A stretch of DNA of 64,000 nt from Fibrobacterota bacterium (GTDB taxonomy: Bacteria; Fibrobacterota; Fibrobacteria; UBA11236), in the NCBI GenBank assembly GCA_019509785.1, contig JAEKLQ010000037.1:3324-67323 (forward strand), written 5' to 3'. Positions within the stretch are counted from its first letter, which is position 1. Every line of letters begins with the position of its first letter. Shown here piece after piece: positions 12,194 to 60,388 of the stretch. The notes below the pieces were generated by a model. It searched no databases and was not told the DNA's origin. It saw nothing but the letters and a program-made list of their open reading frames with translations. The position numbers and the translations under genes were made by a program.

Positions 12194-12345
12194 GGCCAAG
12201 TTGACCTTCCCCAGGTAACCGATCCGGCCTCGTGGCGCGTCGTAACCGGAAGGATCGTACCGGAAGCGCGTCTATTTCGTCTGCAACTCGCGGCGTTTCC
12301 CGTATCCATCGGGCATCCGCAAATGTTATTATAGGAGGACTCCCC

Positions 12346-14196
12346 ATGGCCGTCGAAACCGGGACATTGAATGCCGCCGCCGCGACTCTCGCCTCTTCCT
12401 CCTCATTCGCTGGGAGCTATCCGATGACCGATTCCTTCCGGACCTTGCCGGGCCTGCTCAAATACGTGGAAGCCAAGTTCCGGAACCCGGCCACGCTGGG
12501 TTACAAGAAGGATGGCGCATGGGTCGGCATATCGACCCAGGAGATGGGCGAAACCGTGCGTCGGCTTTCCTCCGGGCTGGTGGAACTCGGCCTCAAGCCC
12601 GGCGACAAGGTCGGCATCGTGGCCGATCCTTCCCCTTTCTGGATGATGATGGATCTCGCAATCCTGGGGGCCGGAGCCATTTCGGTGCCGATGTTCGCCA
12701 ACATCTCCCATGAGAATCTCAACTTCGAAATCCAGGATTCCGGGATGCGGTTCCTCTTCGTCGGCTCCCTGGAACAGTACGAGGCCATGAAACCCTTCTT
12801 CGGCCGCCTGGAAAAGATCCTCGCCATGGCGCCGCAAGCGGCTTCCGCCGGGGACGCCAAGGTGGTCGCCTTCCAAGCCCTGCTGGACCTAGGCTCCAAG
12901 CGCATCGCCGCCCACCCCGGCGAGTACCTCCGCCTATCCGAAGGCATCAACGAGCAGGATACCGCCACCCTCATCTACACCTCTGGAAGCACGGGAATGC
13001 CCAAGGGCGTCACCCTGACCCATCGCAACCTGGTCACCCAGGTCATGGGCGCGGTCAAGCGTTTCCCTCTCGATCCCAAGACCGACGTCATCCTCTCTTG
13101 CCTCCCCTTGGCCCACGTCTTCGAACGCCTGGTGGCGTACTACTACCTGTACTCAGGTTGCCCCCTCTACTTCGCGGAAGAAATCAAAAAGGTCGGGGAT
13201 AACCTGCGCGAACTGCACCCTACCGTCATCACCATGGTGCCGCGTTTGTTGGAGAAGGTGCATGCGCGTTTCCAGGCCAACCTGGAATTGGCGAAGGGTT
13301 TCAAGAAAACCCTGGGGATGAAAGCCTGGGAAAGGGCGCATAAGAAGGAGCCGGGCAGCAAGGATAACTGGAAGGACAAGCTGTACGACGCGTTGGTTTA
13401 TAAGAAGATGCGCGAGGGCCTGGGCGGCCGATTGCGCTTGGCGATTTCCGGTAGCGCCCCGCTGGATCCGGCCCTGGCCGCTTTCCTGTTGAACATCGGC
13501 ATCCCGATTTACGAAGGCTACGGATTGACCGAGGCCTCCCCCGTGATCGCCTGCAATTATCCCGGCCATCGCAAGCTGGGCACCGTGGGCCTGGCTTTCC
13601 CCGGCGTGGAAGTGAAAATCGCCGATGATGGCGAAATCATGGCCCGCGGCCCGAATATCATGAAGGGCTACCACAACAAGCCGGTAGAGACCGCCGAAGT
13701 CATAGACAAGATGGGTTGGCTGCATACCGGGGACCTCGGGCACGTCGATAACGAGAACTTCATCAAGATCACCGGCCGCAAGAAGGAACTCTTCAAGACG
13801 GCGAACGGCAAATACGTGGCTCCCGTCCCCATCGAGGCCGCCATCGCGTCCAGTAAGCTGGCGGATATGGTGATGGTGGTGGCGGAAGGGAAACCCTTCA
13901 CGACATGCCTCATCTTCCCTGATTTCGAAAACCTGAAGGTCGTGAAACAGGAGCTGGGAGCCGAGACGGCCGAGAACGGCGCCTTCCTCGACAGCGCCGA
14001 GGCCAAGGCCTACGTGCAAAAGACCGTGGACGAGGTGAACGCCAAGTTGAACCATTGGGAGCAGATCCAGAAGTTCCGGATCATCAAGACGCCCATTTCC
14101 ATCGATACCGGAGAACTTACCCCGACCATGAAAATCCGCCGCCATGTTGTCATGGAAAAATGCCGGGCGGAAATCGATTCGATGTACCGGTCGTAA
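12346..14196 (+). CDS. fadD: Long-chain-fatty-acid--CoA ligase (AMP-dependent synthetase)
   Basis: AMP-binding motif TLIYTSGSTGMPKGVTLTHRNL, then EGYGLTE, TGDLG and GRKKELFKTANGKYVAP. AGGAGGA lies 6 nt upstream of the ATG at 12346. Confidence 0.9.
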   Translation: MAVETGTLNAAAATLASSSSFAGSYPMTDSFRTLPGLLKYVEAKFRNPATLGYKKDGAWVGISTQEMGETVRRLSSGLVELGLKPGDKVGIVADPSPFWMMMDLAILGAGAISVPMFANISHENLNFEIQDSGMRFLFVGSLEQYEAMKPFFGRLEKILAMAPQAASAGDAKVVAFQALLDLGSKRIAAHPGEYLRLSEGINEQDTATLIYTSGSTGMPKGVTLTHRNLVTQVMGAVKRFPLDPKTDVILSCLPLAHVFERLVAYYYLYSGCPLYFAEEIKKVGDNLRELHPTVITMVPRLLEKVHARFQANLELAKGFKKTLGMKAWERAHKKEPGSKDNWKDKLYDALVYKKMREGLGGRLRLAISGSAPLDPALAAFLLNIGIPIYEGYGLTEASPVIACNYPGHRKLGTVGLAFPGVEVKIADDGEIMARGPNIMKGYHNKPVETAEVIDKMGWLHTGDLGHVDNENFIKITGRKKELFKTANGKYVAPVPIEAAIASSKLADMVMVVAEGKPFTTCLIFPDFENLKVVKQELGAETAENGAFLDSAEAKAYVQKTVDEVNAKLNHWEQIQKFRIIKTPISIDTGELTPTMKIRRHVVMEKCRAEIDSMYRS

Positions 14197-14199
14197 GAA

Positions 14200-14219
14200 C
14201 AATTTCCGCGCGGAAATTG
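14200..14219. promoter_or_regulatory. Perfect 20-bp palindrome CAATTTCCGCGCGGAAATTG between fadD and fadN (operator-like or hairpin)
   Basis: The sequence is its own reverse complement. It starts 4 nt after the fadD stop. It is AT-rich at the edges and has no following U-tract. Confidence 0.4.
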
Positions 14220-14338
14220 ATTCCATGCACCGCCCCTAAGTACAATATTAGAGGTATCGCCGCCCGATCCGGGCCGGCGGTCGCGGACGCCGAAACGCGG
14301 CGCCGCCAGAATCCTTCCCCTTCCCCGGAGGAGCCTCT

Positions 14339-16675
14339 ATGCAACCCATCCGCAGCGCCACCGTCATCGGCTCCGGCATCATGGGATCCCAGATCGCCGC
14401 CCACCTGGCCGGATGCGGCATCCCCGTCCTGCTCCTCGACATCCCCACCGAAGGGAAGGACCGCAACGCGGTGGCCAACAAGGGTCGAGATGGGTTGAAG
14501 AAGGTGAAGCCCTCGCCGCTTTATTCCACCGAAGCCCTGGATTTGATCAGCACCGGCAATACCGCCGATCATCTGGCCGAAGCGGGCAAGACGGATTGGA
14601 TCATCGAAGCCATTATCGAACAGCCCAAGCCCAAGCAGGAGTTGTTCCAGAAGCTGGCCCCGCTGATGGGGCCGGATACCATCCTGGCCACCAACACTTC
14701 GGGCATACCGCTCAAGGTATTAGGCGAAGGCCTGCCGGAATCGGTGCAACAGCGTTTCATCGGCACGCATTTCTTCAATCCGCCGCGCTACCTGCGGCTA
14801 GTGGAAGTCATCCGCGGACCCAAGACCTCGCAGACCACCGCCGACCGCATCGAGCATGTCCTCAATGCCGTGCTCAACAAGGTGCCCGTTCCCGCCTTGG
14901 ATTCGCCGACCTTCATCGCCAATCGCATCGGGGTGCAAGCCATGGTGGCGACCGTGAAAATCGCCAAGGAGATGGGCCTGTCCGTGGAAGAAGTGGACGC
15001 CTTGACCGGGCCACTACTAGGCCGGCCCAAGACCGGCACCTTCAAGCTTGTGGACCTGGTGGGCATCGATACCCTCGGCCATATCATCAACGGCCTCAAG
15101 CAGGCCTTCCCGAAGGAAGACTTCTCCATCGATCCCGTGATCCAGGGCCTCATCGACAAGAAATTCTTCGGGCGGAAATCCAACGCGGGTTTCTATCGCA
15201 AGGGCAAATCGAAAGAGGACATGGAGGTCGTCGACCTCAAGACCGGCGAGTACCGCCCCGAAGCCAAGGCCCGCTTCGAAGAGCTGAAGGACATCTCCAA
15301 GGAAGAGAACGCGGAGAAGAAGTTCCGCAAGTTGTTCGCCGCCCAGGGCCGCGGCGCCGAGGCCGCCCAACGCATCCTGTCTTCAACCTTGGCCTATGCC
15401 GCCACCGTCGCGCCCGGCATCACGGAAGAACTGTCCTACGTCGACGAAGCCATGGAACTGGGCTTCGGCTGGGAAACCGGACCCTTCAAGATCATCGACG
15501 CCATCGGCCCGGAAGCCTTCCAGGCGGCCTGCGCCAAGTTCAAGATCGAGGCCCCCGCCTGGCTTTTCCAATCCGTAGGCGGCGATGCCCGCACCTATCA
15601 GGTCGAAGGCGGCCGGGTCCTGATCCGGGACTTGCCCAGGACGGGATCGGCCGGTGGCCGGCATGAGATGAAGTCCCGCGGCTTCAACCTCGCGCGACAT
15701 CGCGCCAGCCATAAGCCGGTCATCGCCACCACCGATGCCACCCTGTGGGACATGGGCGACAAGATCCTCTTGCTCGAATTCCATTCCAAGATGAATTCCA
15801 TGGGCCCCATCTCCCTCGACATGATCATGAAGTCGGTGGATAAGGCCAACGACGGCTGGGACGGCCTCGTGATCGGCAACCAGGGCGCCAACTTCTGCGC
15901 CGGCGCCAACATCGCCATGGTGCTGATGGACGCCGCCAACGGCGAATTCGACAACGTCGATCAGGCCATCCGCATCTTCCAGAAGGCCAGCATGGCCATC
16001 AAGTATTCCGGCGTGCCGGTCATCGTTTCGCCGCATAACATGGCTTTGGGCGGCGGCTGCGAATTCGTTTTGCATAGCAATCGCCCCGTGCTTTCGCCCG
16101 AAACCTATCTGGGCCTAGTGGAAGTGGGCGTGGGGCTTCTGCCCGCCGGCGGCGGGACCAAGGAATTGGCATTGCGCACCTACCAAAGCGGGCGCGGCCC
16201 CTTGACCTTGCCCGCCCTCGCCAAGGTCTTCGAGCTCATCGCAACCGCCAAGGTCTCGACCAGCGCCAAGGAAGCTTTCGAATTGGGATACCTCGACAAG
16301 CGCGCCGTCATCGCCGCGAACGAATCGACGCGCCTGGATCAGGCCAAGGCCGAAGCCATGGCCATGGCCCGCGCCGGCTATCGCCCGCCCGCGCCCGCCC
16401 TGAAGATCGAGGTGTTGGGAACCGAGGCCATCGCCGCCTTCGAGACCGGTATCTTCATGCTGCGCGAAGCGGGCTACGCTTCCGAGCACGACGCCTATAT
16501 CGCCCGCGAGGTCGGCCATATCCTGGCCGGCGGCAAGGTTACCGCGGGAACCATGGTGGACGAGGATTACCTGCTGGAATTGGAGCGGGAAGGTTTCCTG
16601 AAGCTGGTGGGGACGAAGAAGTCCCAGGAGCGGATCGAGTTCATGCTCAAGAAGGGCAAGCCGTTGAGGAACTAG
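14339..16675 (+). CDS. fadN: Bifunctional 3-hydroxyacyl-CoA dehydrogenase / enoyl-CoA hydratase (dehydrogenase domain N-terminal, FadN-type order)
   Basis: N-terminal NAD fold VIGSGIMGSQIAAHLAGCGIPVLLLDI and HFFNPPRYLRLVEV. The C-terminal crotonase motif is GANFCAGANIAMV. GGAGGAG lies upstream of the ATG. Confidence 0.9.
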   Translation: MQPIRSATVIGSGIMGSQIAAHLAGCGIPVLLLDIPTEGKDRNAVANKGRDGLKKVKPSPLYSTEALDLISTGNTADHLAEAGKTDWIIEAIIEQPKPKQELFQKLAPLMGPDTILATNTSGIPLKVLGEGLPESVQQRFIGTHFFNPPRYLRLVEVIRGPKTSQTTADRIEHVLNAVLNKVPVPALDSPTFIANRIGVQAMVATVKIAKEMGLSVEEVDALTGPLLGRPKTGTFKLVDLVGIDTLGHIINGLKQAFPKEDFSIDPVIQGLIDKKFFGRKSNAGFYRKGKSKEDMEVVDLKTGEYRPEAKARFEELKDISKEENAEKKFRKLFAAQGRGAEAAQRILSSTLAYAATVAPGITEELSYVDEAMELGFGWETGPFKIIDAIGPEAFQAACAKFKIEAPAWLFQSVGGDARTYQVEGGRVLIRDLPRTGSAGGRHEMKSRGFNLARHRASHKPVIATTDATLWDMGDKILLLEFHSKMNSMGPISLDMIMKSVDKANDGWDGLVIGNQGANFCAGANIAMVLMDAANGEFDNVDQAIRIFQKASMAIKYSGVPVIVSPHNMALGGGCEFVLHSNRPVLSPETYLGLVEVGVGLLPAGGGTKELALRTYQSGRGPLTLPALAKVFELIATAKVSTSAKEAFELGYLDKRAVIAANESTRLDQAKAEAMAMARAGYRPPAPALKIEVLGTEAIAAFETGIFMLREAGYASEHDAYIAREVGHILAGGKVTAGTMVDEDYLLELEREGFLKLVGTKKSQERIEFMLKKGKPLRN

Positions 16676-16690
16676 TGATAGAAGGCAAAG

Positions 16691-16796
16691 AAGGGTAAAG
16701 GGTTAAGGGTCAAGGGTCAAGGGCGGAGACCGGAATGGATCGACCTACCGGCGCGCAGCGCCGCCTGCACCCTTAACCCTTAACCCTTTACACTTA
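16691..16796. repeat. AGGGTNN-heptamer palindromic intergenic element, copy 1 (fadN-fadA spacer)
   Basis: The G-arm A AGGGTAA AGGGTTA AGGGTCA AGGGTCA AGGG (16691-16723) faces the C-arm CACCCTTAACCCTTAACCCTTTACACTT (16769-16796). About 23 bp pair with one mismatch, and the spacer is about 45 nt. Confidence 0.8.
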
Positions 16797-16833
16797 CCAC
16801 GAAATCAGACAAACAAGATCGGAGAGGTGAATC

Positions 16834-18012
16834 ATGAGTGAAGCAGTCATCGTAGCGGGGGTCCGCACTCCCGTCGGCAAAGCCGGCAAAGGGTCCTTCA
16901 CCCACGTCCGTTCCGATACCCTGGCGGCCATCACCGTGCGCGAAGTGCTCAAGCGCGCGCCGGGAATCAAACCCGAGGATATCGAGGATCTGATCCTCGG
17001 ATGCGCCATGCCGGAAGCGGAACAAGGCATGAACGTGGCCCGCATGGTTGGCCTCATGTCCGGCCTGCCCGACAGGACCGCGGCCATGACTATCAACCGG
17101 TATTGCTCCTCGGGATTGCAATCCATCGCCCTGGCCAGCGATCGGATCAACCTGGGGGACGCGGAAGCCATCCTGGCGGGCGGGCTGGAGAGCATGTCCA
17201 TGATCCCCATGGGCGGTCATAAGATCGCGCCCAACCCCGAACTGGTGGGCAAGCGCCCGGAATCGTACATGACCATGGGGCTGACCGCGGAACGCGTGGC
17301 CGCGAAATTCGGCATCACGCGCGAACAACAGGATGCCTTCTCGCTGCGGTCGCACCAGAAAGCCTTCGCCGCCATCCAAGCCGGGAAATTCAAGGACGAA
17401 ATCGTCCCGGTGGTGTGGACGGAGACGCAATTGGATCGGCATAAGAAAGAGAAGTCCATCGAGCGCACCTTAGCCCAGGACGAAGGCCCCCGCGCCGATA
17501 CGACCTTGGAAGCCTTGGGCGGGCTTAAGCCCGCCTTCAAGAACAACGGTACGGTGACCGCGGGCAACAGCTCCCAAGTGAGCGATGGCGCGGCCATGAC
17601 CCTGGTGGTCTCCCGGAAGTTCGCCGAGTCCCGGGGCTTAAAGCCCATCGCCCGCCTGGTCAAATTCGCCGTCGTCGGTTGCGCGCCGGAAATCATGGGC
17701 ATCGGCCCGGCGGAGGCCATTCCCGCGGTCCTCAAGAAGGCGGGCCTTTCCAAGGACCAGATCGATCTCATCGAGTTGAACGAAGCCTTCGCGTCCCAAA
17801 GCCTGGCCGTGCTCAAGGCCATCGACTTCCCGGAAGAGAAGGTGAACGTGAACGGCGGCGCCATCGCCTTGGGCCATCCCCTGGGTTGCACCGGCACCAA
17901 GCTCACCGTGACCCTGCTGAACGAGCTCAAGCGCCGCGGCGGCAAGTACGGCATCGTATCGATGTGCATCGGCGGTGGCATGGGCGCGGCCGGCCTCTTC
18001 GAAATGCTGTAA
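16834..18012 (+). CDS. fadA: Acetyl-CoA C-acyltransferase (3-ketoacyl-CoA thiolase)
   Basis: Active-site region NRYCSSGLQSIA, NGGAIALGHPLGCTG and CIGGGMG. GGAGAGG lies upstream of the ATG. Confidence 0.9.
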   Translation: MSEAVIVAGVRTPVGKAGKGSFTHVRSDTLAAITVREVLKRAPGIKPEDIEDLILGCAMPEAEQGMNVARMVGLMSGLPDRTAAMTINRYCSSGLQSIALASDRINLGDAEAILAGGLESMSMIPMGGHKIAPNPELVGKRPESYMTMGLTAERVAAKFGITREQQDAFSLRSHQKAFAAIQAGKFKDEIVPVVWTETQLDRHKKEKSIERTLAQDEGPRADTTLEALGGLKPAFKNNGTVTAGNSSQVSDGAAMTLVVSRKFAESRGLKPIARLVKFAVVGCAPEIMGIGPAEAIPAVLKKAGLSKDQIDLIELNEAFASQSLAVLKAIDFPEEKVNVNGGAIALGHPLGCTGTKLTVTLLNELKRRGGKYGIVSMCIGGGMGAAGLFEML

Positions 18013-18136
18013 CCCCACGGTTTCCCCGTTAGGACCCTCGGCCCATCCCGGAGCCGGGGGTTTTATAGTGCCATGAGTTATATTTCGGCCACTCATGGCC
18101 ATCGTTTCCCCTGGTTTTTCCGTTCCCCCCGAACCC

Positions 18137-21100
18137 ATGCGATTCCAACGCGTCCTTTGGGCTTGGGCCGCCTGCGCGTGCCTCCTCCTGGTATCCCTTT
18201 TCATCTGGTCTTGCAACACCGCTCCCGCGGACGAAAACAGCATCACCCTGAATCTGGATTCATCCCGGGTCGGGAAATTCGATAGCGTCCTGGTCGAGAT
18301 CTTCAACGGGGCCGCGCCCGCGGCCGGGGATACGACCCGCCCCGTACAGTCACAAACCATAAAGCTGCAGGCCTCCACCAAGCAGATCACCATCAAGCTG
18401 AGCTCGAAGGTCAAACCGGATTTCTCGGTAGTGGTGACCGGCTACTCCGGGGATCAAGTCGCCTATCGTAACCTGCACACGGTGGACGGGTTCGGCTCGC
18501 CGGATAGTACCAAGCCCGCGGTGCTCCTCATCTCCCGCATCTTGGCCGATAGCCTTACCCTGAACGTAGGGGAGACGCGCTCGCCTGCGATCAAGTTCGA
18601 ACCCGAGAATCCGGGGGACAAGCGCATCGTGCTTAAATCCTTGGATACCACCCTGGTCGCCGTGGCGGGGGATAGTATCAAGGGCCTCGCCGCCGGCAAG
18701 GCCCACGTCGAAGCCTTGACGGCGGATGGCAAGATCAAGGTGACCTTCACGGTCAACGTGGCCGTGGTGCGCGTGACCGGGCTGCTGGCGGATACCCTTC
18801 AGCTTAGGGTGGGGGATAGCGTGGCGCCCGAGGTCCGCATCGTACCGGACAATGCCACCGACAAGGAATTTACCGAGGAAAGCCTGGACAGCGGCTTGAT
18901 AGCGGTGGATGGCAAGAAGGTGATCGGCCTCAAGGCCGGGCAGGCCAAACTAGTCCTGGCGTCCCGCGATGGCGGGGCCAAGGATACCCTCATCGTACGC
19001 GTACGGGTGCCGGTGGGCGGGATCGGCGCTAAGGATCAAACGAAAGAGGTGGGGGATCGATTCCCTCCCGTGCTGGAATTCCAACCGGCGGACGCGACCC
19101 GTAAAGGATATACGCTAACGACCAGCGACAGTTCCAAAGTGGCGGTGGTCGGGGATAAGGACAGTCTCGAGGCCATGTCCGTCGGCTCGGCGAAGATCAC
19201 GGTCAAGACCAATGACGGCGGCTTCACCGCGACATTCACGGTGGACGTGGTGCGTAAGGTTATCCATGTGAAAGCCATTACGTCGGATAGCCTGCGGGCC
19301 TTGCCGGGCGATACCTTGGCGGTCCAGCTGACTTTCGATCCGGCCAATGCCACCGACCAGGGATTCACCCTCAAGAGCCTGGACACGGCTTTGGCGGAGG
19401 TGGATGGGAACAAGTTGATCGCGAAGGCGGTCGGGAAGGCGAAGATCGTGGCCGCCACGGTGGACGGGGATCTCCGCGATACCATCGACTTTACCGTCGC
19501 GCTCGCCAATTTCATTCAGGACATCAAGCCGATCACCAGTTCCAAATGCGCCCCTTGCCACATCCCCCCGGCGACCTTCAATTGGACCGATTCGGCGCAG
19601 CTCGTGCGCAAAGGCCCGATAGCCATGCTCCGGCTCACCCTTCCGGATACGGCCGTTGGCCACATGCCGGTGGCGGGCGCTACGGGCGGGCCGATCACCC
19701 AGCGGGAATTGCGGGTGCTCTTGGGATGGCTAGGGCGCGTCTCGGTCCCCTTGGCTTCCATCGCGGTCAAGGATACCGAGGTTAACATGGGCGATACCCT
19801 GGCCGCGCCTATCACCTTCAATCCCGTCAACGCGTCCAATCAGGATTTCATCTTGACCACCCTGGATACGTCAATCGTGACCGTCGTGGGTAAGCGCCTG
19901 GTCGCGGCGGGCGTGGGTTCCACGTCCATAGACGTCCTTCTCGACGAGGGCGGCCGCCATTCCAAATTCAAGGTTACGGTGGACCTGCCCTCGTTCCTGA
20001 AAAACGTTCAACCCATCACCACCGTCAAATGCACGCCCTGCCATGGCCCCGATCAGGTCTTCAACTGGCAGGATTCCTCGGCCCTGATAGGGGATGGCTC
20101 CAATGCCTTGGATCGCTTGACGCGGGACGCCAACGCGCCCGGGAAGATGCCGCTGAAGGGCGCGCCCAACGGCGATCTCACCCCGGCCGAGCTGCGCATC
20201 CTGCTGACATGGTTGAACTCGAAAGTGGTTCCCCTCAAAGGCATCACCGTTCCAGACGACAGCCTGGTGCTGGAGACCCAGAAGGAACCGGCCATCGTCT
20301 GGAATCCCGCCAACGCCACCAACAAATCCTTCATCCTGGTCAGCGCCGATACGGCCAAGGTGGGCATCCTGGGTACCCGTATGCTGGGCAAGGCCCTGAG
20401 TGCAGGGACAACGGTGGAAGTGCGCGCCATCGACGGGGGATTCTCCAAGCTGATCTTGGTCAAGGTGCTTCCCATCAAGGTCGATTCGATCGCCGTGCAC
20501 GATACCGCATGCGCGGTCGGGGATTCGGTCTACCTGAAGCCGGTCTTTTTCCCGGCCAATGCGTCCAACCAGGCCTTCACGGTGGTCTCCAAGATCGCCA
20601 GCCCCAAGGTCAAGATCGATTCGGGTTTCAAAATCACCGGCATGATTCTCGGCAAGGACACCTTGGAAGCCTCCTCCACCGACGGCGGCAAGAAAGCCCG
20701 CTTCGTCTTCACGGTGGGCCCGGTTATCCCGAAGTCGATTATCATCCCGGATACCAACGGCACTGTTTCCGGGGCCCTGATCAGCCCCCGCTTGATCTGG
20801 AATCCGACCACCACCACCGATAAGTCGTTTACCTTGGCGATCACCGCGGGCGATACCGTCAACGTGGCCGCGGTGCGCGGAACCCAGTTGCTCCCGAAGG
20901 CCTCGGTGGGCCAGGTAACCGTGGTAGCGACCTCGATCGCCGATCCCACCGTCAAGGCGACCTTCAAGTTCAGCGTGGGACCGGTCGGCGTCATCAGTTT
21001 TTCGACCGCCCCGATTACGACGAACATCGGATTCCTCCTGGCCCCATCCATCACATGGAACCCGGCCAATGCCACCAACAAGTCAATCGCCTTGACCCTG

Positions 21101-21475
21101 GCGGCGGGGGATACCGGCTTGGTCCTCAATGGCGCCGCGACCGCGATCACGACCAAACATCTGGGCCTGCATAGCGTGACGGTGAAGTCCCTGGACAGCA
21201 ATAAGACCGCGCCCTGGTCGGTGAACGTTATCCGGACTTCGTTTACTGCTAACATTTTGGGAATCACTACCTCGAGGTGCAGCGCCTGCCACAATGCATC
21301 CACCAACCAATTGACCCAGCCGAATTGGATGGATTCAGCCACGGTCGTGTCCTTTGCCGCGGCCATCAAGGATCGCATCAGCCGGTCCAGCCTGGCCGCT
21401 GGATATATGCCTCAAGGCTCCACCATGGGGGCTGACACCATCGCCGTCATCACGAATTGGCTGAATCAGAATTGA
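18137..21475 (+). CDS. Large secreted/surface protein: nine Big_2-type Ig-like repeats interleaved with three CxxCH (c-type haem-binding-like) modules
   Basis: Signal peptide MRFQRVLWAWAACACLLLVSLFIWSC (possible lipobox). Repeats of about 75 aa carry P-x-NAT-[DN]-[KQ]. CAPCH is at 19547-19561, CTPCH at 20030-20044 and CSACH at 21278-21292, each followed by an xMP and an L..WL segment. An alternative start is at 18095. Confidence 0.8.
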   Translation: MRFQRVLWAWAACACLLLVSLFIWSCNTAPADENSITLNLDSSRVGKFDSVLVEIFNGAAPAAGDTTRPVQSQTIKLQASTKQITIKLSSKVKPDFSVVVTGYSGDQVAYRNLHTVDGFGSPDSTKPAVLLISRILADSLTLNVGETRSPAIKFEPENPGDKRIVLKSLDTTLVAVAGDSIKGLAAGKAHVEALTADGKIKVTFTVNVAVVRVTGLLADTLQLRVGDSVAPEVRIVPDNATDKEFTEESLDSGLIAVDGKKVIGLKAGQAKLVLASRDGGAKDTLIVRVRVPVGGIGAKDQTKEVGDRFPPVLEFQPADATRKGYTLTTSDSSKVAVVGDKDSLEAMSVGSAKITVKTNDGGFTATFTVDVVRKVIHVKAITSDSLRALPGDTLAVQLTFDPANATDQGFTLKSLDTALAEVDGNKLIAKAVGKAKIVAATVDGDLRDTIDFTVALANFIQDIKPITSSKCAPCHIPPATFNWTDSAQLVRKGPIAMLRLTLPDTAVGHMPVAGATGGPITQRELRVLLGWLGRVSVPLASIAVKDTEVNMGDTLAAPITFNPVNASNQDFILTTLDTSIVTVVGKRLVAAGVGSTSIDVLLDEGGRHSKFKVTVDLPSFLKNVQPITTVKCTPCHGPDQVFNWQDSSALIGDGSNALDRLTRDANAPGKMPLKGAPNGDLTPAELRILLTWLNSKVVPLKGITVPDDSLVLETQKEPAIVWNPANATNKSFILVSADTAKVGILGTRMLGKALSAGTTVEVRAIDGGFSKLILVKVLPIKVDSIAVHDTACAVGDSVYLKPVFFPANASNQAFTVVSKIASPKVKIDSGFKITGMILGKDTLEASSTDGGKKARFVFTVGPVIPKSIIIPDTNGTVSGALISPRLIWNPTTTTDKSFTLAITAGDTVNVAAVRGTQLLPKASVGQVTVVATSIADPTVKATFKFSVGPVGVISFSTAPITTNIGFLLAPSITWNPANATNKSIALTLAAGDTGLVLNGAATAITTKHLGLHSVTVKSLDSNKTAPWSVNVIRTSFTANILGITTSRCSACHNASTNQLTQPNWMDSATVVSFAAAIKDRISRSSLAAGYMPQGSTMGADTIAVITNWLNQN

Positions 21476-21569: not shown

Positions 21570-22121
21570 ATGCGCGCCAAGTTCTCCGCACCCTCGATCG
21601 CCCTGGCTTTCGCCCTCGCCCTGGCTTTCCTACCGCATTCAGCCCATGCCGCCAAGGATTCCATCGCGGTAGGTCAGCCCGCTCCGGACTTCACCTTGCC
21701 CGATCAAGATGGCAAGCCGGTGGGTCCCAAGGACTTCTCCGGCCATTGGCTGGTCCTTTATTTTTACCCGAAGGATTTCACGGGCGGATGCACCCTCGAA
21801 GCGCATAACTTCCAACGGGATAGCGCCAAGTACGCCGAGGACGATGCGGCCATCCTCGGGGTCAGCTTGGATACGCCCGGTTCGCATAAGGATTTCTGCG
21901 CCAAGGAAGGCTTGCGTTTCAAGCTTTTGGCCGATAGCGGCGGCACGGTTTCGGCCCGCTACGGATCGCTCAACAATTACTTGGGTAAGAAGCTTTCGGC
22001 GCGGAACACTTTCATCATCGATTCCCAGGGGAAGGTCGCGCGCGTATTCTTGGGCGTAAAGCCCGCGACCCACAGCGAAGAAGTCTTGGCGGCCCTAGCC
22101 GAGCTCCGCAAGCCGAAATGA
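21570..22121 (+). CDS. bcp: Secreted peroxiredoxin (Bcp / AhpC-TSA family)
   Basis: Signal peptide ..FLPHSAHA|AKD. Peroxidatic Cys motif LYFYPKDFTGGCTLEA. Confidence 0.85.
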   Translation: MRAKFSAPSIALAFALALAFLPHSAHAAKDSIAVGQPAPDFTLPDQDGKPVGPKDFSGHWLVLYFYPKDFTGGCTLEAHNFQRDSAKYAEDDAAILGVSLDTPGSHKDFCAKEGLRFKLLADSGGTVSARYGSLNNYLGKKLSARNTFIIDSQGKVARVFLGVKPATHSEEVLAALAELRKPK

Positions 22122-22238: not shown

Positions 22239-23063
22239 CTAGAGCGAGTTGTACAGGCCTTCGTCCAGGGTGAAGAAAAGCTCCAGGCGCACGGCCCGGG
22301 TCTCCTCCATGAACTGCCCGGCCAAAGTGACAGGGAACTGGAGCTCTGCGCTCACGATCTTATTTAAGGTGTAGTACGCGCCCGGGGTCGCCACGAACAG
22401 ATGCGCGCCGTCGTCGGAGGAATTGCCGTCCACTTCCCGGTTGAACATGAAATCGTAGCTAAGCGCCAGGTTCAGGCCCAGGTATTGCCCCCGCGTGGTC
22501 AAGGCCTTCAGGGGCAGCGGGTATTCCGGTTTCGCGTAGAAGCGGATGTCATCGATCTTGCTCTTATGGCTGTCCTCGGTGTTGAACGAGTAGGAAACAT
22601 TGCTCTTCAGATTCAGCATCGGGAAAATCTTGTTGTACATGGCCCCGAAGCTCAGGGTCGCGTAATTTCCCGCGTTCATGATGTCCTCGAAACCCACCGG
22701 CAGCGCGATGGCGAGAAAGCCGCCCAGCCCCTTGGTCGGATCCAGGTATTTCAAAGCCAGCCTGGGGCGATCCAAGCCCGTATGTCCGCTATCGTCCTGG
22801 ATCAGGTAGTTGACCTCCATCGAACCTTCGAGGTTGTCCATCAAGCCGAATTTACCCTGCATGGGCAAGCTCAGGGGATTGTTCTCGTTCTCGACTCCGT
22901 CGCTTTCCCAAGTGTCTTGGTAGACCCCCGTGATGTCCGAGCGTTCCATCCCGACATTGATTTGCATCACCCGGGCCGGGACGGGATTGTATTCGTCGAG
23001 GGCGAAAGGCGCCACGGCCGTGAGGACAACGGTGAAGGAGGCGACCATCAACTTATGCGACAT
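22239..23063 (-). CDS. Putative outer-membrane beta-barrel protein (transporter-like, function unknown)
   Basis: Signal peptide MSHKLMVASFTVVLTAVAPFA. The sequence shows an alternating beta-strand pattern throughout (LNLALSYDFMF, GAYYTLNKIVSAELQFPV, VRLELFFTL). Confidence 0.65.
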   Translation of the reverse strand: MSHKLMVASFTVVLTAVAPFALDEYNPVPARVMQINVGMERSDITGVYQDTWESDGVENENNPLSLPMQGKFGLMDNLEGSMEVNYLIQDDSGHTGLDRPRLALKYLDPTKGLGGFLAIALPVGFEDIMNAGNYATLSFGAMYNKIFPMLNLKSNVSYSFNTEDSHKSKIDDIRFYAKPEYPLPLKALTTRGQYLGLNLALSYDFMFNREVDGNSSDDGAHLFVATPGAYYTLNKIVSAELQFPVTLAGQFMEETRAVRLELFFTLDEGLYNSL

Positions 23064-28387: not shown

Positions 28388-28668
28388 CGTCAATGGAACC
28401 CCTCTAGGAATCCGTAACCCCTGGAAGACAAGCATAGCGGTTCGTAACATATGAGTACAGAAAAATCGCGGGATAGGCACGGTGATTCAAGCCATGGCGG
28501 ATGGGGCCTAGGCGGTTTTCTTTCCGGTATCGGTACCGGGACGCGAAGGCAGTTCGTTTTATGATGGGAGTCATGGTTCCGATTATACCGGCTGGGGCAA
28601 AGGGGGGTAAAAGGAAAAGCGCCATTCCGGCTTCGCGCTTTGGCGCGCGGTTTTCTTCTCTCTGGAAT

Positions 28669-31044
28669 ATGGCGAAATTCCCGACGCGGATCGCTTTGGG
28701 AATCCTGGGAGCTTGGGCCGTTTTGGCTTGTGGCGATAAGGCTTCGGCGCCGGTCGAGACCGGAGCCAAGGTCCCGTACGATGCCTCCGTGGAGGGCCTG
28801 CCCGAAGCGAAAGCCATGGGCACGCTGGAGGCGAAGGACGGCGATACCGTTCATCTCACCGTATCCTACGTGGCCAAGTGGGTCTCGGGCAGGAAGGTGC
28901 GCATGCTGGCCTATAACGGATCGGTGCCGGGTCCGATCGTCAAGGTCAGCCAAGGCGCCTCCATCGTGGTCCTGGTGAAAAACGAGACGGATCTTCCCAC
29001 CAGCTTGCATTCCCACGGCGTCCGTTTGGATTCCGATTACGACGGTGTCGTCGCCGAGGACAAAGGCGCTCCCGGCCCGGGCCAAACCTTCGCATATCAT
29101 GTCCGTTTCCCCGATGCCGGCATCTACTGGTACCATCCGCATACGCGCTCGGATTACCAAACGCAGGTGGGCCTATATGGCGCCTATTTGGTCGCTCCAG
29201 CCGACCCGGCCTATTGGCCCCCGGTCAACCGCGAGATTGTTCTGATGATCAACGATTTGGCGATCAGCGGGAACGTTTTGCAGCCCTTCTACCGGAATGA
29301 AACCGATCATACCTTGATGGGACGATTCGGGAACGTGCTCATGGTGAACGGGGACACGGCCTGCACCATCCGCGTGAAGCGTAACGAGACTATCCGTTTC
29401 TACGTGGTGAACGCTTCCAATGCCCGGGTCTACAACCTGCAATATTCGCGCGACATGGACATGAACATCGTAGGAGCCGACAATGGCCGCTTCGTGCTCC
29501 CCGATTCCAGGGAGTCCTATCTAATCGCCCCGTCCGAGCGATTCATCTACCAACTCTATTTCAACGATGTCTTATCGGATTACGATACCCTCGATTTATG
29601 GAATGCCACGCCCACCGGCGCGCGCCCGTTGGCGCACTTCGTGTACGAGCCCGATACGGCCATGCCCGATTACCGTTCCAGCATCAACCTGGACAGTTGC
29701 CCACAGGCCGCCGCGTCCATCGATCCCTTCCGGCCCTATTTCGATAAGTCCCCCGACGAGGAAATCCTGTTGACGGGATTCATGGCCATGTCCAAGCCGC
29801 TTGCGAAAGCGGCCCTGCTTTCCGCAACGAACGCATTGGCGAAAGCGGCCGCGGTCGCCCATGATGCGGACCCTTCCAACAGGCTGGGAGTGGAATGGAG
29901 CGATAGCGTGCACGGCCCGGCCATGCTCTCCATGAACGACTCGTCCACCGACGCCAATACGCATTGGGCCATCCGCGATCTCAGGACCGGGAAGGAAAAC
30001 CATGACATCCAATGGACCTTCTCGAAAGGGGATAAGATCCTGATCCGGGTGCATAACGATACCACCACCACGGGACCCGACGCGTCCATCATGTACCATT
30101 CCATGCCCCACCCACTGCACTTCCATGGACAACGTTTCCTGGTGGTGCGCGAGAACGGGCGGCCCACCTTGGAGAGCCTGGTTTGGCGGGACACCTACCT
30201 GATCGGGCGCGGATATACGGTGGACCTGTTGTTGGACGCGTCCAATCCGGGCGATTGGATGTTCCATTGCCATATCGCCGAGCATTTGGAAGACGATATG
30301 ATGGCGCATTTCCGGGTGGTGGATAGCGGGGGCGATGCGCCTCGGCCATACGAATGGTCCCTCGGGCTTCCCTGGGCGGGGATCGATTCCCTGCGCCGGG
30401 ATACCAGCCTGGCCGTCCTGATGCGCGCGGCCATCACCGGGACCGTCCGGGCCCGGCCCACCCCGGGGGCCGCCGATATTCCCTTGGCCGCGGCCTTGGA
30501 CGGAAAGATATACCTGTCCAACGCGGATTTCCCCGACTTGCATGCCGAGGCCGCGTTCGATGCGGCCGGCCGCTTCACCGTGGCAGCGGATGCGGTCCTA
30601 GGCGCGGCCGACATCGTCCGCCTTAAGATCTGGGTCAAGGGCGTTACGTCCGGCCTGCGCCCGGTGCCCGATACCTTGCATCTGGTATTGGATCGCCGCG
30701 GAAAGATCCCTTGGTCCCTCGATCTCGATCTGGCGGGAGAGGCTTCCTTCGCGGGTCTTAAAATGGATACTTCGGCCGTGAGCACCATGCGAGGACAAGT
30801 GGCCGGGAAGGTGAACGGGTACGATGGGACCGTGATGCGGGATTCGTTATATTTCCGGAATATGGTCTATCCGGAAATGTTCGCCTACGCGCCGCTGAAG
30901 CCCGACGGCACCTTCTCCTTCGATGCGGCCGATCTGGTCGGCGCTTTGGATGGCAGGCACGAAATCGAGATTTTCTTGCGTCCCCAGGCCGGATCGCGTC
31001 GTTTCGATCCGGACACCCTGCGCGTGCACTTGAGCATTCCGTGA
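28669..31044 (+). CDS. Multicopper oxidase lipoprotein (laccase/CueO-like) with a C-terminal extension of about 250 aa containing two beta-sandwich-like repeats
   Basis: Lipobox AVLAC|GD. All four copper motifs are present: HSHG, WYHPH, HPLHFHG and HCHIAEHLEDDMM. The C-terminal tail contains two related ~110-aa segments, each ending PDTL(H/R)(L/V). Confidence 0.85.
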   Translation: MAKFPTRIALGILGAWAVLACGDKASAPVETGAKVPYDASVEGLPEAKAMGTLEAKDGDTVHLTVSYVAKWVSGRKVRMLAYNGSVPGPIVKVSQGASIVVLVKNETDLPTSLHSHGVRLDSDYDGVVAEDKGAPGPGQTFAYHVRFPDAGIYWYHPHTRSDYQTQVGLYGAYLVAPADPAYWPPVNREIVLMINDLAISGNVLQPFYRNETDHTLMGRFGNVLMVNGDTACTIRVKRNETIRFYVVNASNARVYNLQYSRDMDMNIVGADNGRFVLPDSRESYLIAPSERFIYQLYFNDVLSDYDTLDLWNATPTGARPLAHFVYEPDTAMPDYRSSINLDSCPQAAASIDPFRPYFDKSPDEEILLTGFMAMSKPLAKAALLSATNALAKAAAVAHDADPSNRLGVEWSDSVHGPAMLSMNDSSTDANTHWAIRDLRTGKENHDIQWTFSKGDKILIRVHNDTTTTGPDASIMYHSMPHPLHFHGQRFLVVRENGRPTLESLVWRDTYLIGRGYTVDLLLDASNPGDWMFHCHIAEHLEDDMMAHFRVVDSGGDAPRPYEWSLGLPWAGIDSLRRDTSLAVLMRAAITGTVRARPTPGAADIPLAAALDGKIYLSNADFPDLHAEAAFDAAGRFTVAADAVLGAADIVRLKIWVKGVTSGLRPVPDTLHLVLDRRGKIPWSLDLDLAGEASFAGLKMDTSAVSTMRGQVAGKVNGYDGTVMRDSLYFRNMVYPEMFAYAPLKPDGTFSFDAADLVGALDGRHEIEIFLRPQAGSRRFDPDTLRVHLSIP

Positions 31045-49731: not shown

Positions 49732-49815
49732 GCGGTTGTGGTGAAATTGGTAGACACGCCAGCTTGAGGTGCTGGTGGGGGCAACCCCTTCGCGGTTCAA
49801 GTCCGCGCAACCGCA
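49732..49815 (+). tRNA. leuU: tRNA-Leu (anticodon GAG), long variable arm, no encoded CCA
   Basis: Hand-folded cloverleaf. Acceptor stem GCGGTTG/CAACCGC plus discriminator A. D-arm GTG-AAATTGGTAGA-CAC. Anticodon stem CCAGC/GCTGG with loop TTGAGGT. 15-nt variable arm with GGGG/CCCC. T-arm CGCGG-TTCAAGT-CCGCG. Confidence 0.9.
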
Positions 49816-51586: not shown

Positions 51587-51629
51587 GGTGAAGGTTGCTA
51601 CAAACGCCGAAAGGACATTGCGGTCATCC

Positions 51630-52472
51630 ATGATCCATTCCTTGGCATTACGCCTGTGCGCGCTTTCCGTACTCCCGATATTGGCGGGATGCCTGTGGCC
51701 CCAACCCGCCGCCGCTCCCAAGCCCTTATCGCAAAGACTGACCTGGTGCGGCCGGCAAGCCGGGCTAATCCTGGACTCGGTCCCGTCCGATACCGGCAAT
51801 CCCTCGGCCTGCATCCGCATTCAACGTTTGGAATTCCCGGGAGCGACTACGCCATTCCGGATGGAATTGCGCCAGTACCGGGATCCGGTCCGGGCCTTCG
51901 TCGCATGGGAGGGCTTAGCCTTACAAACCCGGCCGCAAGAGGGATGCGTTCGGATCGGATCCCGGTGGGCCTTCATCCATGCCGCCTACGTGGGATTGAC
52001 GGATTCCTCGGCGGGCGAATTATATCCAGAGGAATTCCGGGAACGGCTGGCCGCCGCCGATGAACCTGCCATCCTGTTTCCGGAGCAATTCAAAGCCTTC
52101 CCCCTGCTGGGCCGAATTCCGGGCAGCGAGCGGATTTCCATGAAGGATTTCCTAGGCGGGCCCTGGAGCGGTCCGGTCTTCTCGGTCGGATATCCCTGCC
52201 ATGGGGACACGGCCATTGCCTTCCGCGCCTCGGCTCGCGATGCGGCCTCCTTGGCTGGCTGGATGAATCCTTGGAAATTCTCCGCGCCCGGCCGGGCGGC
52301 CGATTTCACCCTGGAAAAGCGCTACCAGGGGGAAGATGAATTCGGGCGGCCCATGATTCTCAGGGCATTTTCGGACGGAATATTGGGAATTTCGGGTTGC
52401 TATGATTCCGATTTAGGCCAGGAATATGCTGAAAAAATGCGAAAAATGCAGGTTTTTTGGCATGACCCTTGA
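51630..52472 (+). CDS. Hypothetical lipoprotein
   Basis: MIHSLALRLCALSVLPILAGC|LW carries a canonical lipobox. The ATG at 51630 lies 43 nt after the upstream stop. Confidence 0.6.
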   Translation: MIHSLALRLCALSVLPILAGCLWPQPAAAPKPLSQRLTWCGRQAGLILDSVPSDTGNPSACIRIQRLEFPGATTPFRMELRQYRDPVRAFVAWEGLALQTRPQEGCVRIGSRWAFIHAAYVGLTDSSAGELYPEEFRERLAAADEPAILFPEQFKAFPLLGRIPGSERISMKDFLGGPWSGPVFSVGYPCHGDTAIAFRASARDAASLAGWMNPWKFSAPGRAADFTLEKRYQGEDEFGRPMILRAFSDGILGISGCYDSDLGQEYAEKMRKMQVFWHDP

Positions 52473-52576
52473 ATTTCGTCAAAAAATCGGAATTCGAATT
52501 GACATTTGCCCCTTTTTGTTGCAATTTACAGGATCGAAGGGCAATTTACGCCACTTTCAGCATCGGAGGTCGTCCC

Positions 52577-52762
52577 ATGAGCACCATCCAAGCCTTGGAA
52601 AACGAAATCGGATTACTCAAGGAAGAATACGAGAAATTCGAGCGCGGCAATAAATCCGCGGGAACGAGAGCGCGGAAAATCCTGCAGAACATCAAGCGTC
52701 TGTCCCAGGAAATCCGCGTGACCATTCAGACCGTCAAGAAGACCGAAGATAAGCCGAGCTAA
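52577..52762 (+). CDS. Small basic 'histone H1-like' DNA-binding protein of the type annotated in Bacteroidetes (61 aa)
   Basis: MSTIQALENEIGLLKEEYEKFERGNKSAGTRARKILQNIKRLSQEIRVTIQ contains the core GN-K-[AS]-AGTR-[AV]-RK..Q..K....E.R that I recall from such proteins. GGAGG lies 7 nt upstream of the ATG. The N-terminal extension in the ORF track (from 52469) was not used. Confidence 0.6.
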   Translation: MSTIQALENEIGLLKEEYEKFERGNKSAGTRARKILQNIKRLSQEIRVTIQTVKKTEDKPS

Positions 52763-52813
52763 GGCTTCTTCCTCTTCCTAGTCCCCTTTCGAGTCAGGAC
52801 GACTTCTTTAAAT

Positions 52814-52846
52814 CCGGTGGCCCCCAAGGGTTTCCGGGTTTTTTTT
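52814..52846 (+). terminator. Rho-independent terminator after the histone-like gene
   Basis: CCGGTGGCCC-CCAA-GGGTTTCCGG forms an imperfect 10-bp stem with G-U pairs, followed by T8 (52839-52846). Confidence 0.55.
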
Positions 52847-52927
52847 GTTCAAAATTCTTCGCGACCCGGGGATTGGGCCGTGATCGCATGTCTCGCCTTA
52901 TTTCGCGGGAAAGAACCGAAAATCGGA

Positions 52928-60341: not shown

Positions 60342-60388
60342 CGAGAGCCTTTGGGCCCCTTTCGCGGGCCCATTAGGTGAGGTTAACA

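Follow-up and report, generated by a model that had tools for sequence, protein, structure and literature searches.

Three cytochrome c-like modules spaced along an Ig-like stalk in a predicted lipoprotein of soil Fibrobacterota

The cytochrome gene and its product

We analysed a stretch of 64,000 nucleotides (the window, 64 kb) from contig JAEKLQ010000037.1 of a Fibrobacterota bacterium (assembly GCA_019509785.1), DNA that derives from soil metagenomes. Our subject is gene 10, the sole gene of the window with CxxCH motifs and referred to below as the cytochrome gene, which very probably encodes a lipoprotein with three haems. It is a single open reading frame (ORF) on the forward strand, 18095..21475, of 1126 residues; opposite-strand ORFs in this window of 60% GC lack the bias in GC content at third codon positions that real genes show. 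An earlier interpretation made from the letters alone (the sequence-only reading) had proposed a start at 18137. This corresponds to Met15 of the 1126-residue frame, and the signal peptide is more typical from there, reading MRFQRVLWAWAACACLLLVSLFIWS followed directly by C. Its n-region is basic, a hydrophobic helix spans residues 24-36 in the AlphaFold2 model, and an acidic cluster lies 5-8 residues past the lipobox cysteine. All orthologues share a basic n-region, a hydrophobic core and a lipobox of the form [LIVF]-W-S-C, whose cysteine (C40) is invariant across a 34-sequence full-length alignment, and these features therefore mark the protein as a lipoprotein with a lipid anchor at its N-terminus. 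Lipidation is predicted at Cys40. The protein has ten cysteines: residues 27, 29 and 40 in the signal peptide and lipobox, residue 806, and six in three CxxCH motifs. Neither Pfam nor the AlphaFold2 model gives a transmembrane segment beyond the signal peptide, a cytoplasmic part or a recognisable output domain, and a C-terminal domain of the type IX secretion system is absent since the C-terminus is itself a cytochrome module.

The full-length AlphaFold2 model was built from an alignment of 34 orthologues (mean predicted local distance difference test score, pLDDT, 82; predicted template modelling score, pTM, 0.37). After the signal peptide and lipobox come an N-terminal beta-sandwich, four immunoglobulin-like (Ig) domains, a cytochrome module, one Ig domain, a second cytochrome module, four further Ig domains and a third cytochrome module (Table 1). 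The same order of Ig and cytochrome units had been given by the sequence-only reading, which had missed the N-terminal beta domain, a tenth one with six strands at residues 49-131 and without any Pfam match. The nine Ig-like beta-sandwiches of the model (residues 148-223, 229-304, 309-386, 394-468, 555-630, 716-792, 798-875, 881-961 and 968-1046) and its three four-helix modules (473-549, 634-710 and 1054-1123) are joined by junctions of 3-7 residues. Nine Big_2-like repeats had been counted beforehand, a number borne out by these sandwiches; Pfam recognises Big_2 (PF02368) in five stretches, at 63 bits (cut-off 22.8). The P-x-NAT motif that each repeat was said to carry has a narrower distribution, as N-A-[TS] is present in six of the nine Ig domains and degenerate in the remaining three. 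A Foldseek search with the whole model returned matches to extracellular and surface multi-Ig arrays with E-values down to 1e-31; the matched structures include nuclear pore complex chains, the Aureispira grappling-hook protein, Bacillus S-layer proteins and DSCAM.

The three CxxCH motifs compare with 0.0009 expected by composition. Each is followed by a Met-Pro pair 39-43 residues past the first cysteine (35-39 past the histidine, where 35-60 is the range looked for in class-I cytochromes), and not at the 45-55 residues after CxxCH that had been quoted. To describe the conservation of the modules we aligned 71 module sequences drawn from about 35 orthologues, with 26-86% identity to module 2. 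Columns C16, C19, H20, D30, S31, M55 and P56 are invariant, and R44, W76 and L77 nearly so. Across the 34 aligned full-length sequences, C40 and all three sets of CxxCH, DS, MP and WL motifs make up the bulk of the invariant residues, and the invariance of Cys, His and Met in homologues, which had been named in advance as a test of the cytochrome assignment, thus holds for modules and whole proteins alike. Modelled alone, module 2 gives a confident helical fold (pLDDT 94.9, pTM 0.84; helices at 4-20, 31-36, 38-45 and 67-80). Its first helix ends at CxxCH, its C-terminal one is long, and the model contains no haem.

A profile of the module, searched against the sequences of the PDB, matched the C-terminal haem domain of CcoP best (9g83 chain v; E 4.3e-5, positions 10-78 of the profile). 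This alignment runs from the residues ahead of CxxCH through the Asp region and Met-Pro into the last helix, and the two would share His/Met ligation and a class-I monohaem fold; CcoP belongs to a membrane oxidase as one of its subunits, while the domain described here sits within the Ig stalk of a lipoprotein. Weaker matches, among the best 60 of the 98 found at E ≤ 10, were PccH, hydrazine synthase alpha, FoxE, c551 and c6. In Pfam the nearest family is likewise the CcoP-type Cytochrome_CBB3 (PF13442), which scores 25.4 bits with the full protein against a cut-off of 27, the best stretch being residues 644-707 in module 2. Isolated modules gave weak matches to Cytochrome_CBB3 and PccH only, and a precomputed PF13442 match is recorded for some orthologues. 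Foldseek against the PDB with the haem-free module model gave a best E-value of 1.0 and template modelling scores of 0.4-0.5, a comparison that tends to give low scores to small helical models lacking haem; cytochrome c domains (QcrC, NirN, iso-1-cytochrome c and YhjA) are among the top-ranked matches, which are not significant. The identification of each module as a His/Met class-I monohaem c domain, as the sequence-only reading had it, is well supported by sequence and only weakly checked by fold. One covalently bound haem on each CxxCH is the likely consequence, and the invariant Met-Pro points to methionine as the probable axial ligand opposite the histidine.

Table 1. Coordinates of features within and around the cytochrome gene (positions in the window)
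Feature	Position	Strand	Details and basis
Predicted lipoprotein signal peptide	18137..18214	+	aa 15-40, lipobox I-W-S-C40; alternative upstream start 18095
N-terminal beta-sandwich	18215..18514	+	aa ~41-140; no cofactor motif; AlphaFold2
Big_2 Ig-like domains 1-4	18527..19501	+	aa 145-469; Pfam, AlphaFold2 strands, Foldseek
Putative cytochrome c module 1	19502..19750	+	aa 470-552; C485-A-P-C-H489 (19547-19561), D499-S500, M524-P525, W545-L546
Big_2 Ig-like domain 5	19751..19984	+	aa 553-630; sole spacer between haem modules 1 and 2
Putative cytochrome c module 2	19985..20233	+	aa 631-713; C646-T-P-C-H650 (20030-20044), D660-S661, M685-P686, W706-L707
Big_2 Ig-like domains 6-9	20234..21232	+	aa 714-1046; Pfam, AlphaFold2
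Putative C-terminal cytochrome c module 3 and stop	21233..21475	+	aa 1047-1126; C1062-S-A-C-H1066 (21278-21292), D1080-S1081, M1105-P1106, W1122
Beta-oxidation trio: acyl-CoA synthetase, FadB-like, thiolase	12232-18012	+	directly upstream in every related contig
Weak terminator-like hairpin	18046..18059	+	between thiolase stop (18012) and cytochrome gene; consensus scan
AhpC/TSA peroxiredoxin	21570-22121	+	signal peptide; PrxQ/Bcp-type
Exported protein	22239-23063	-	274 aa
Multicopper oxidase	28501-31044	+	847 aa; Cu-oxidase_3, Cu-oxidase, Cu-oxidase_2
tRNA-Leu(GAG)	49732-49815
Region of lower GC	~51600-52900		GC 0.56 in the 52-54 kb bin
Candidate ORF	52469-52762		weak codon bias
Possible envelope-associated cluster	56614-64000	+	runs to the window end

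Relatives of the modules and of the whole protein

The modules had been likened to the planctomycete cytochrome domain PSCyt1, and this likeness is genuine but remote. PF07635 (PSCyt1) matched neither the whole protein nor the isolated modules even at an E-value limit of 10, and the threshold for Cytochrome_CBB3 was missed as well; hhalign, in contrast, aligned the module with 24 bona fide PSCyt1 modules at a probability of 99.0% (E 2.4e-18, 79 columns), so the resemblance reflects real remote homology. Both have an F-x-x-[DN]-[IV]-x-P-I helix leading into CxxCH, a D-S pair, Met-Pro and a C-terminal L-x-x-W-[LI] helix, and in each case one protein often has several modules. PSCyt1 differs in having some 14 additional residues behind CxxCH (K-Q-K-G-x-L-R-L-D...G-G..G..V.P-G), an insert that the window modules lack, and in its usual partners PSCyt2 (DUF1549) and PSD1 (DUF1553), which Pfam does not find in the window protein. 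The host of the window protein, moreover, is a member of the Fibrobacterota and not of the PVC (Planctomycetes-Verrucomicrobia-Chlamydiae) group. On profile comparison the window modules are short, divergent relatives of the PSCyt1/Cytochrome_CBB3 class-I group, that is, a divergent subgroup of a known domain that is functionally uncharacterised. The function of PSCyt1 has been unknown since its first description in Rhodopirellula baltica.

Modules of the PSCyt1 type are found in thousands of proteins. In a library of 1.84 billion representative proteins, the module profile gave 5,634 matches to cluster representatives at E ≤ 0.001, of which 446 reached E ≤ 1e-10; most had two to eight modules per protein. 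We scanned ten matched proteins with Pfam, and all ten pass Cytochrome_CBB3 while four pass PSCyt1. The four bona fide PSCyt1 proteins are P0131, P0151, P0163 and P0164 (PF07635, E 1e-45 to 1e-77), of which P0163 has the classical PSCyt1-PSCyt2-PSD1 architecture; the proteins assigned to Cytochrome_CBB3 comprise shorter tandem forms (P0130, P0132, P0134 and P0143) together with P0138 and P0207. Several relatives place their modules at intervals along a longer chain. In P0138 five modules accompany Kre9-type, Big_7 and fn3 domains, in P0164 eight modules accompany fn3 domains (both by Pfam), and in P0259 and P0201 modules alternate, as judged by eye, with long non-haem segments. A different layout, with an N-terminal membrane domain followed by modules on Pro/Ala-rich linkers, is found in P0131, where Pfam confirms the membrane domain as DUF2231, and by eye in P0162, P0168, P0172 and P0173, the five having 3-6 modules each; P0168, P0172 and P0173 have three each and an N-terminal membrane region like the DUF2231 of P0131. 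Such 'haems on a string', with 3-8 modules in unrelated proteins of other lineages, are a recurrent design that is apparently undescribed as a class. He et al. also list Big_2 among the domains of Verrucomicrobia PSCyt proteins, whose function is wholly unknown (PMC5615132). Given this listing and the proteins interleaved with fn3, Big_7 and Kre9-type domains, the architecture is not unprecedented: interleaving of the module with beta-sandwiches is not entirely new, and the novelty claimed for it in the sequence-only reading was overstated.

What is specific to Fibrobacterota is the combination of a Big_2 stalk, a lipoprotein anchor and a fixed geometry. A homology search found about 35 full-length orthologues with 31-91% identity, and the representative library added about ten more. 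Those with a named source all come from Fibrobacterota metagenome-assembled genomes (MAGs) and are labelled hypothetical protein, YjdB or Ig domain protein; the family is without annotation in public sources. Every CxxCH and Met-Pro is retained in the orthologue alignments. Among about 40 members, nearly all keep a distance of 157-170 residues from the first to the second CxxCH (one Ig domain) and of 403-425 residues from the second to the third (four Ig domains), the exceptions being P0122 (509 residues) and P0127 (155 residues). Ahead of module 1 the count of Ig domains varies, and cyt1 lies anywhere from residue 243 to residue 527. Mean pairwise identity is highest in cyt1 (54%) and cyt2 (58%), stands at 52% in the N-terminal beta-sandwich and is lowest at the distal end, where Ig9 and cyt3 have 39% each.

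Two groups of relatives show how the number of modules can change. P0026, P0030 and P0031 are natural two-haem variants in which one hybrid module, aligned to window residues 485-660, stands in place of modules 1 and 2 and the intervening Ig domain. Its CxxCH half aligns with module 1 and its Met-Pro half with module 2, and it looks like the product of an in-frame deletion between two repeated modules. The Fibrobacterota paralogues P0035-P0041 (about 1,000-1,200 residues, 24-26% identity over 64-80% of the length) have the same Big_2 repeats, as do Ig arrays of the intimin/invasin type, without the haem. These paralogues have no CxxCH at all, and Ig repeats occupy the aligned positions of the three cytochrome modules, in an alignment that covers window residues ~150-1050. 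Their existence suggests an older Big_2 stalk protein into which the cytochrome modules were inserted, or some of whose units they replaced.

Possible functions of the spaced haem modules

In function the nearest known protein is PgcA (GSU1761) of Geobacter sulfurreducens. Its Sec signal and lipid anchor are followed by a first domain without cofactor and by three domains with one haem each; the chain can stretch to 180 Å, and electrons are relayed by tethered diffusion (PMC11520253). Described in 2023-2024, PgcA was presented as the first electron-transfer protein with haems tethered nanometres apart instead of packed into a chain. The window protein has the same parts list (anchor, cofactor-free first domain, three spaced monohaem domains), with folded Ig spacers and short junctions, and it is on this basis that we propose a set of spaced electron-transfer stations on a surface lipoprotein. 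Taken as a whole, this is the explanation we favour, with moderate confidence. The likeness extends to the last module: domain III of PgcA is the mineral reductase and draws its electrons from domains I and II (PMC11520253), and in the window protein it is likewise the distal module that diverges (39%). PgcA differs in its spacers, which are flexible (PT)x repeats and not folded Big_2 Ig domains with junctions of 3-7 residues, and in its phylum and habitat, and nothing in the analysis connected the window protein with metal reduction. PgcA chains were absent among the best 60 of the 98 PDB sequence matches (E ≤ 10). The sequence-only reading had held that haems separated by Ig spacers would be too far apart for electron hopping; this is correct for a static chain, but electrons could still pass by tethered collision. 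Since PgcA relays between monohaem domains that are nanometres apart, the wide spacing is compatible with electron transfer.

In the mechanism that we envisage, the protein would be exported by Sec and lipidated at Cys40, and would then acquire one covalent haem c per CxxCH with His and Met as axial ligands. The lipid anchor would fix the N-terminus to the envelope, most probably at the outer face of the outer membrane, and anchoring at that end places module 3 at the far tip. The stalk would set haems 1 and 2 at mid-height with a single Ig domain between them, and haem 3 beyond another four Ig domains. The conserved inner pair may exchange electrons with an envelope-proximal donor, while the fast-evolving distal haem may hand them on to an external partner, for example a copper oxidase, a lytic polysaccharide monooxygenase (LPMO), or a humic or mineral acceptor. 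Transfer between stations would occur by collision, through bending of the stalk or contact between neighbouring molecules, comparable to the tethered diffusion of PgcA. The relay and the surface location are a tentative proposal whose chances we put at even or somewhat below; the direction of electron flow and the identity of the partners are conjectural. Surface exposure is suggested by three features. An Ig domain is about 4 nm long, and the ten beta-sandwiches of the stalk would, at that figure, exceed the width of the periplasm; the structural neighbours of the stalk are surface arrays; and the acidic cluster behind the lipobox cysteine resembles the surface-export signals of lipoproteins in the related Bacteroidota.

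Several observations weigh against this interpretation. The module model has no significant fold match in the PDB (Foldseek, best E 1.0) and the protein falls below the Pfam cut-off for Cytochrome_CBB3 (25.4 versus 27). At a pTM of 0.37 the AlphaFold2 model leaves the geometry between domains undefined. Because the junctions measure only 3-7 residues the stalk is likely to be fairly stiff, which would make contact between haems 2 and 3 of the same molecule hard to achieve. The synteny around the gene is conserved for housekeeping and beta-oxidation genes and includes no obvious redox partner, the 64-kb window contains neither a cytochrome c maturation (ccm/ccs) gene nor a second CxxCH protein, and no RNA runs that hold the gene are listed. 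Finally, cultured lineages of Fibrobacteres lack c-type cytochrome chains (PMC4704652). Some uncultured Fibrobacterota are reported to be lignocellulose-degrading denitrifiers (PMC11653725).

The main rival is a periplasmic, membrane-tethered electron carrier between respiratory complexes, in the manner of the membrane-anchored cytochrome c_y or the haem domains of CcoP, for which the Ig stalk would be a spacer only. We consider this unlikely, although it deserves to be taken seriously: the best PDB and Pfam matches of the modules are the respiratory haem domains of CcoP and Cytochrome_CBB3, the attachment of haem takes place in the periplasm regardless, the gene lies amid beta-oxidation genes, sucCD and mdh, as fits a respiring organism, and He et al. 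predict the Verrucomicrobia PSCyt proteins to be periplasmic or cytoplasmic (PMC5615132). The three pointers to the surface set out above, namely the length of the stalk, its structural neighbours and the acidic cluster, all speak against such a carrier, and neither oxidase nor bc1 genes are adjacent. A more radical alternative is that the modules hold no haem and are small helical domains that owe their stability to a disulfide or a metal, in a purely structural stalk of the surface or S-layer type. The lack of a significant cytochrome match in Foldseek, the sub-threshold Pfam scores, the absence of c-type cytochromes from classical Fibrobacteres (PMC4704652) and the S-layer proteins among the fold matches of the stalk are all as this would predict. 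A disulfide or zinc site, however, would not need His20 and Met55-Pro56 to be invariant along with both cysteines in 71 modules, and the homology to PSCyt1 and CBB3-type cytochromes is strong over the whole module profile; we therefore regard haem-free modules as highly improbable. Slightly less so, but still improbable, is the redox- or ligand-sensing adhesin suggested by the sequence-only reading, in which the stalk would attach the cell and the haems would report on oxygen, redox state or a small ligand. Big_2 arrays are indeed typical of adhesins and the haems are widely spaced. Yet the product has no transmembrane segment past the signal peptide, no cytoplasmic part and no output domain through which a signal could pass, so that nothing favours the sensing role, a six-coordinate His/Met haem makes a poor ligand sensor, two-component and chemotaxis genes are not conserved neighbours, and the strict spacing of the haems would be left unexplained.

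Two more specific versions of electron transfer at the surface can be considered. The protein could be a dedicated electron donor for extracellular oxidative attack on polysaccharides or lignin, a sub-case of the spaced-station proposal that we hold to be rather unlikely. Its model is the role proposed for Cellvibrio Cbp2D, and with it the X183 domains of Cellvibrio japonicus and Teredinibacter turnerae (as in Cbp2D), which are small c-type domains in large modular secreted proteins and donate electrons to LPMOs (PMC8981238, PMC10916295); CjX183, for instance, reduces and thereby activates LPMOs (PMC8981238). Fibrobacterota are polysaccharide degraders, with some MAGs active on lignocellulose (PMC11653725), and a three-domain multicopper oxidase is encoded 7 kb downstream in both the window and its closest relative. 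Unlike Cbp2D, however, the window protein combines three haem modules with an Ig stalk and has neither a YceI-like domain nor a carbohydrate-binding module (Pfam detected none of the latter), X183 structures are absent among the best 60 of the 98 PDB sequence matches, and an LPMO or other carbohydrate-active enzyme is never a conserved neighbour, the fucosidases and esterase nearby being sporadic. Equally doubtful, in our estimation, is a rigid 'haem ruler', in which the Ig stalk would fix the three redox centres at about 20, 25 and 40 nm above the outer membrane and many adjacent copies would make up a redox-active layer on the surface, with electrons passing between neighbours at matching heights. 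If true, it would be an unrecognised route for moving electrons tens of nanometres outside the cells of soil Fibrobacterota towards humics, minerals or oxidative polymer-degrading enzymes, and the PSCyt1-type 'beads on a string' proteins of other phyla could share the same principle.

Two further candidates were rejected. A nanowire or conduit of the OmcS, OmcZ or MtrC type, with many haems packed in one fold at about 1 nm or less from each other, is ruled out by the presence of one CxxCH per module of about 80 residues and at least one complete Ig domain between modules, as the sequence-only reading had correctly anticipated, and Pfam matches to MtrC and C7 are of motif length only. That reading had also raised a haem-handling role; a haemophore or haem-uptake function is not expected of a protein whose CxxCH motifs would bind haem covalently.

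Returning to the spaced-station proposal, the invariant ligands and the spacing set by Ig domains suggest that the principle of spaced monohaem domains reaches beyond PgcA and that rigid spacers can serve it too. The family also brings c-type cytochromes to soil-dwelling members of a phylum best known for fermentative cellulose degraders free of cytochrome c. Should the distal haem feed oxidative enzymes or humic or mineral acceptors, this would bear on how soil polymer degraders dispose of electrons, or deliver them, outside the cell.

Neighbouring genes and other features of the window

The order of the upstream genes is kept in four related contigs and runs GT9, SbcD-like, SbcC-like, acyl-CoA synthetase, FadB-like, thiolase and cytochrome gene. 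Despite this synteny there is no evident functional link between the cytochrome gene and the fadD-fadB-thiolase genes, and the hairpin in the gap suggests, without proving, that the cytochrome gene is a separate transcription unit. On the 3' side lies a variable insert, which holds a peroxiredoxin, fucosidases, an esterase or genes without a Pfam match, and past it the order is again shared: a gene of 270-274 residues on the opposite strand, then Rrf2, sucC, sucD and mdh. The peroxiredoxin, directly downstream in the window, is present in the relative with 91% identity (L003) and replaced by other genes in L001, L004 and L005; as it is not a conserved neighbour we rejected it as a partner. The position and orientation of the gene of 270-274 residues are shared by all four related contigs, and it is the only conserved neighbour of unknown function. 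Its product in the window matches PF13557 (the Phenol_MetA_deg outer-membrane barrel) weakly, at 23.3 bits against a cut-off of 22. The multicopper oxidase gene is also found in L003, and its product is a possible extracellular redox enzyme.

Towards the end of the window, a gene for a single protein of 493 residues with NosD/beta-helix, thrombospondin-repeat and OmpA parts is followed by two for very large TPR proteins, one of 749 residues and one of more than 1,208 that runs past the window end; these may form an envelope-associated cluster. The region of lower GC ahead of them has no confident gene, one candidate ORF, and no match to a tRNA or an Rfam family. The only RNA gene in the window is the tRNA-Leu(GAG) that lies shortly before this region.

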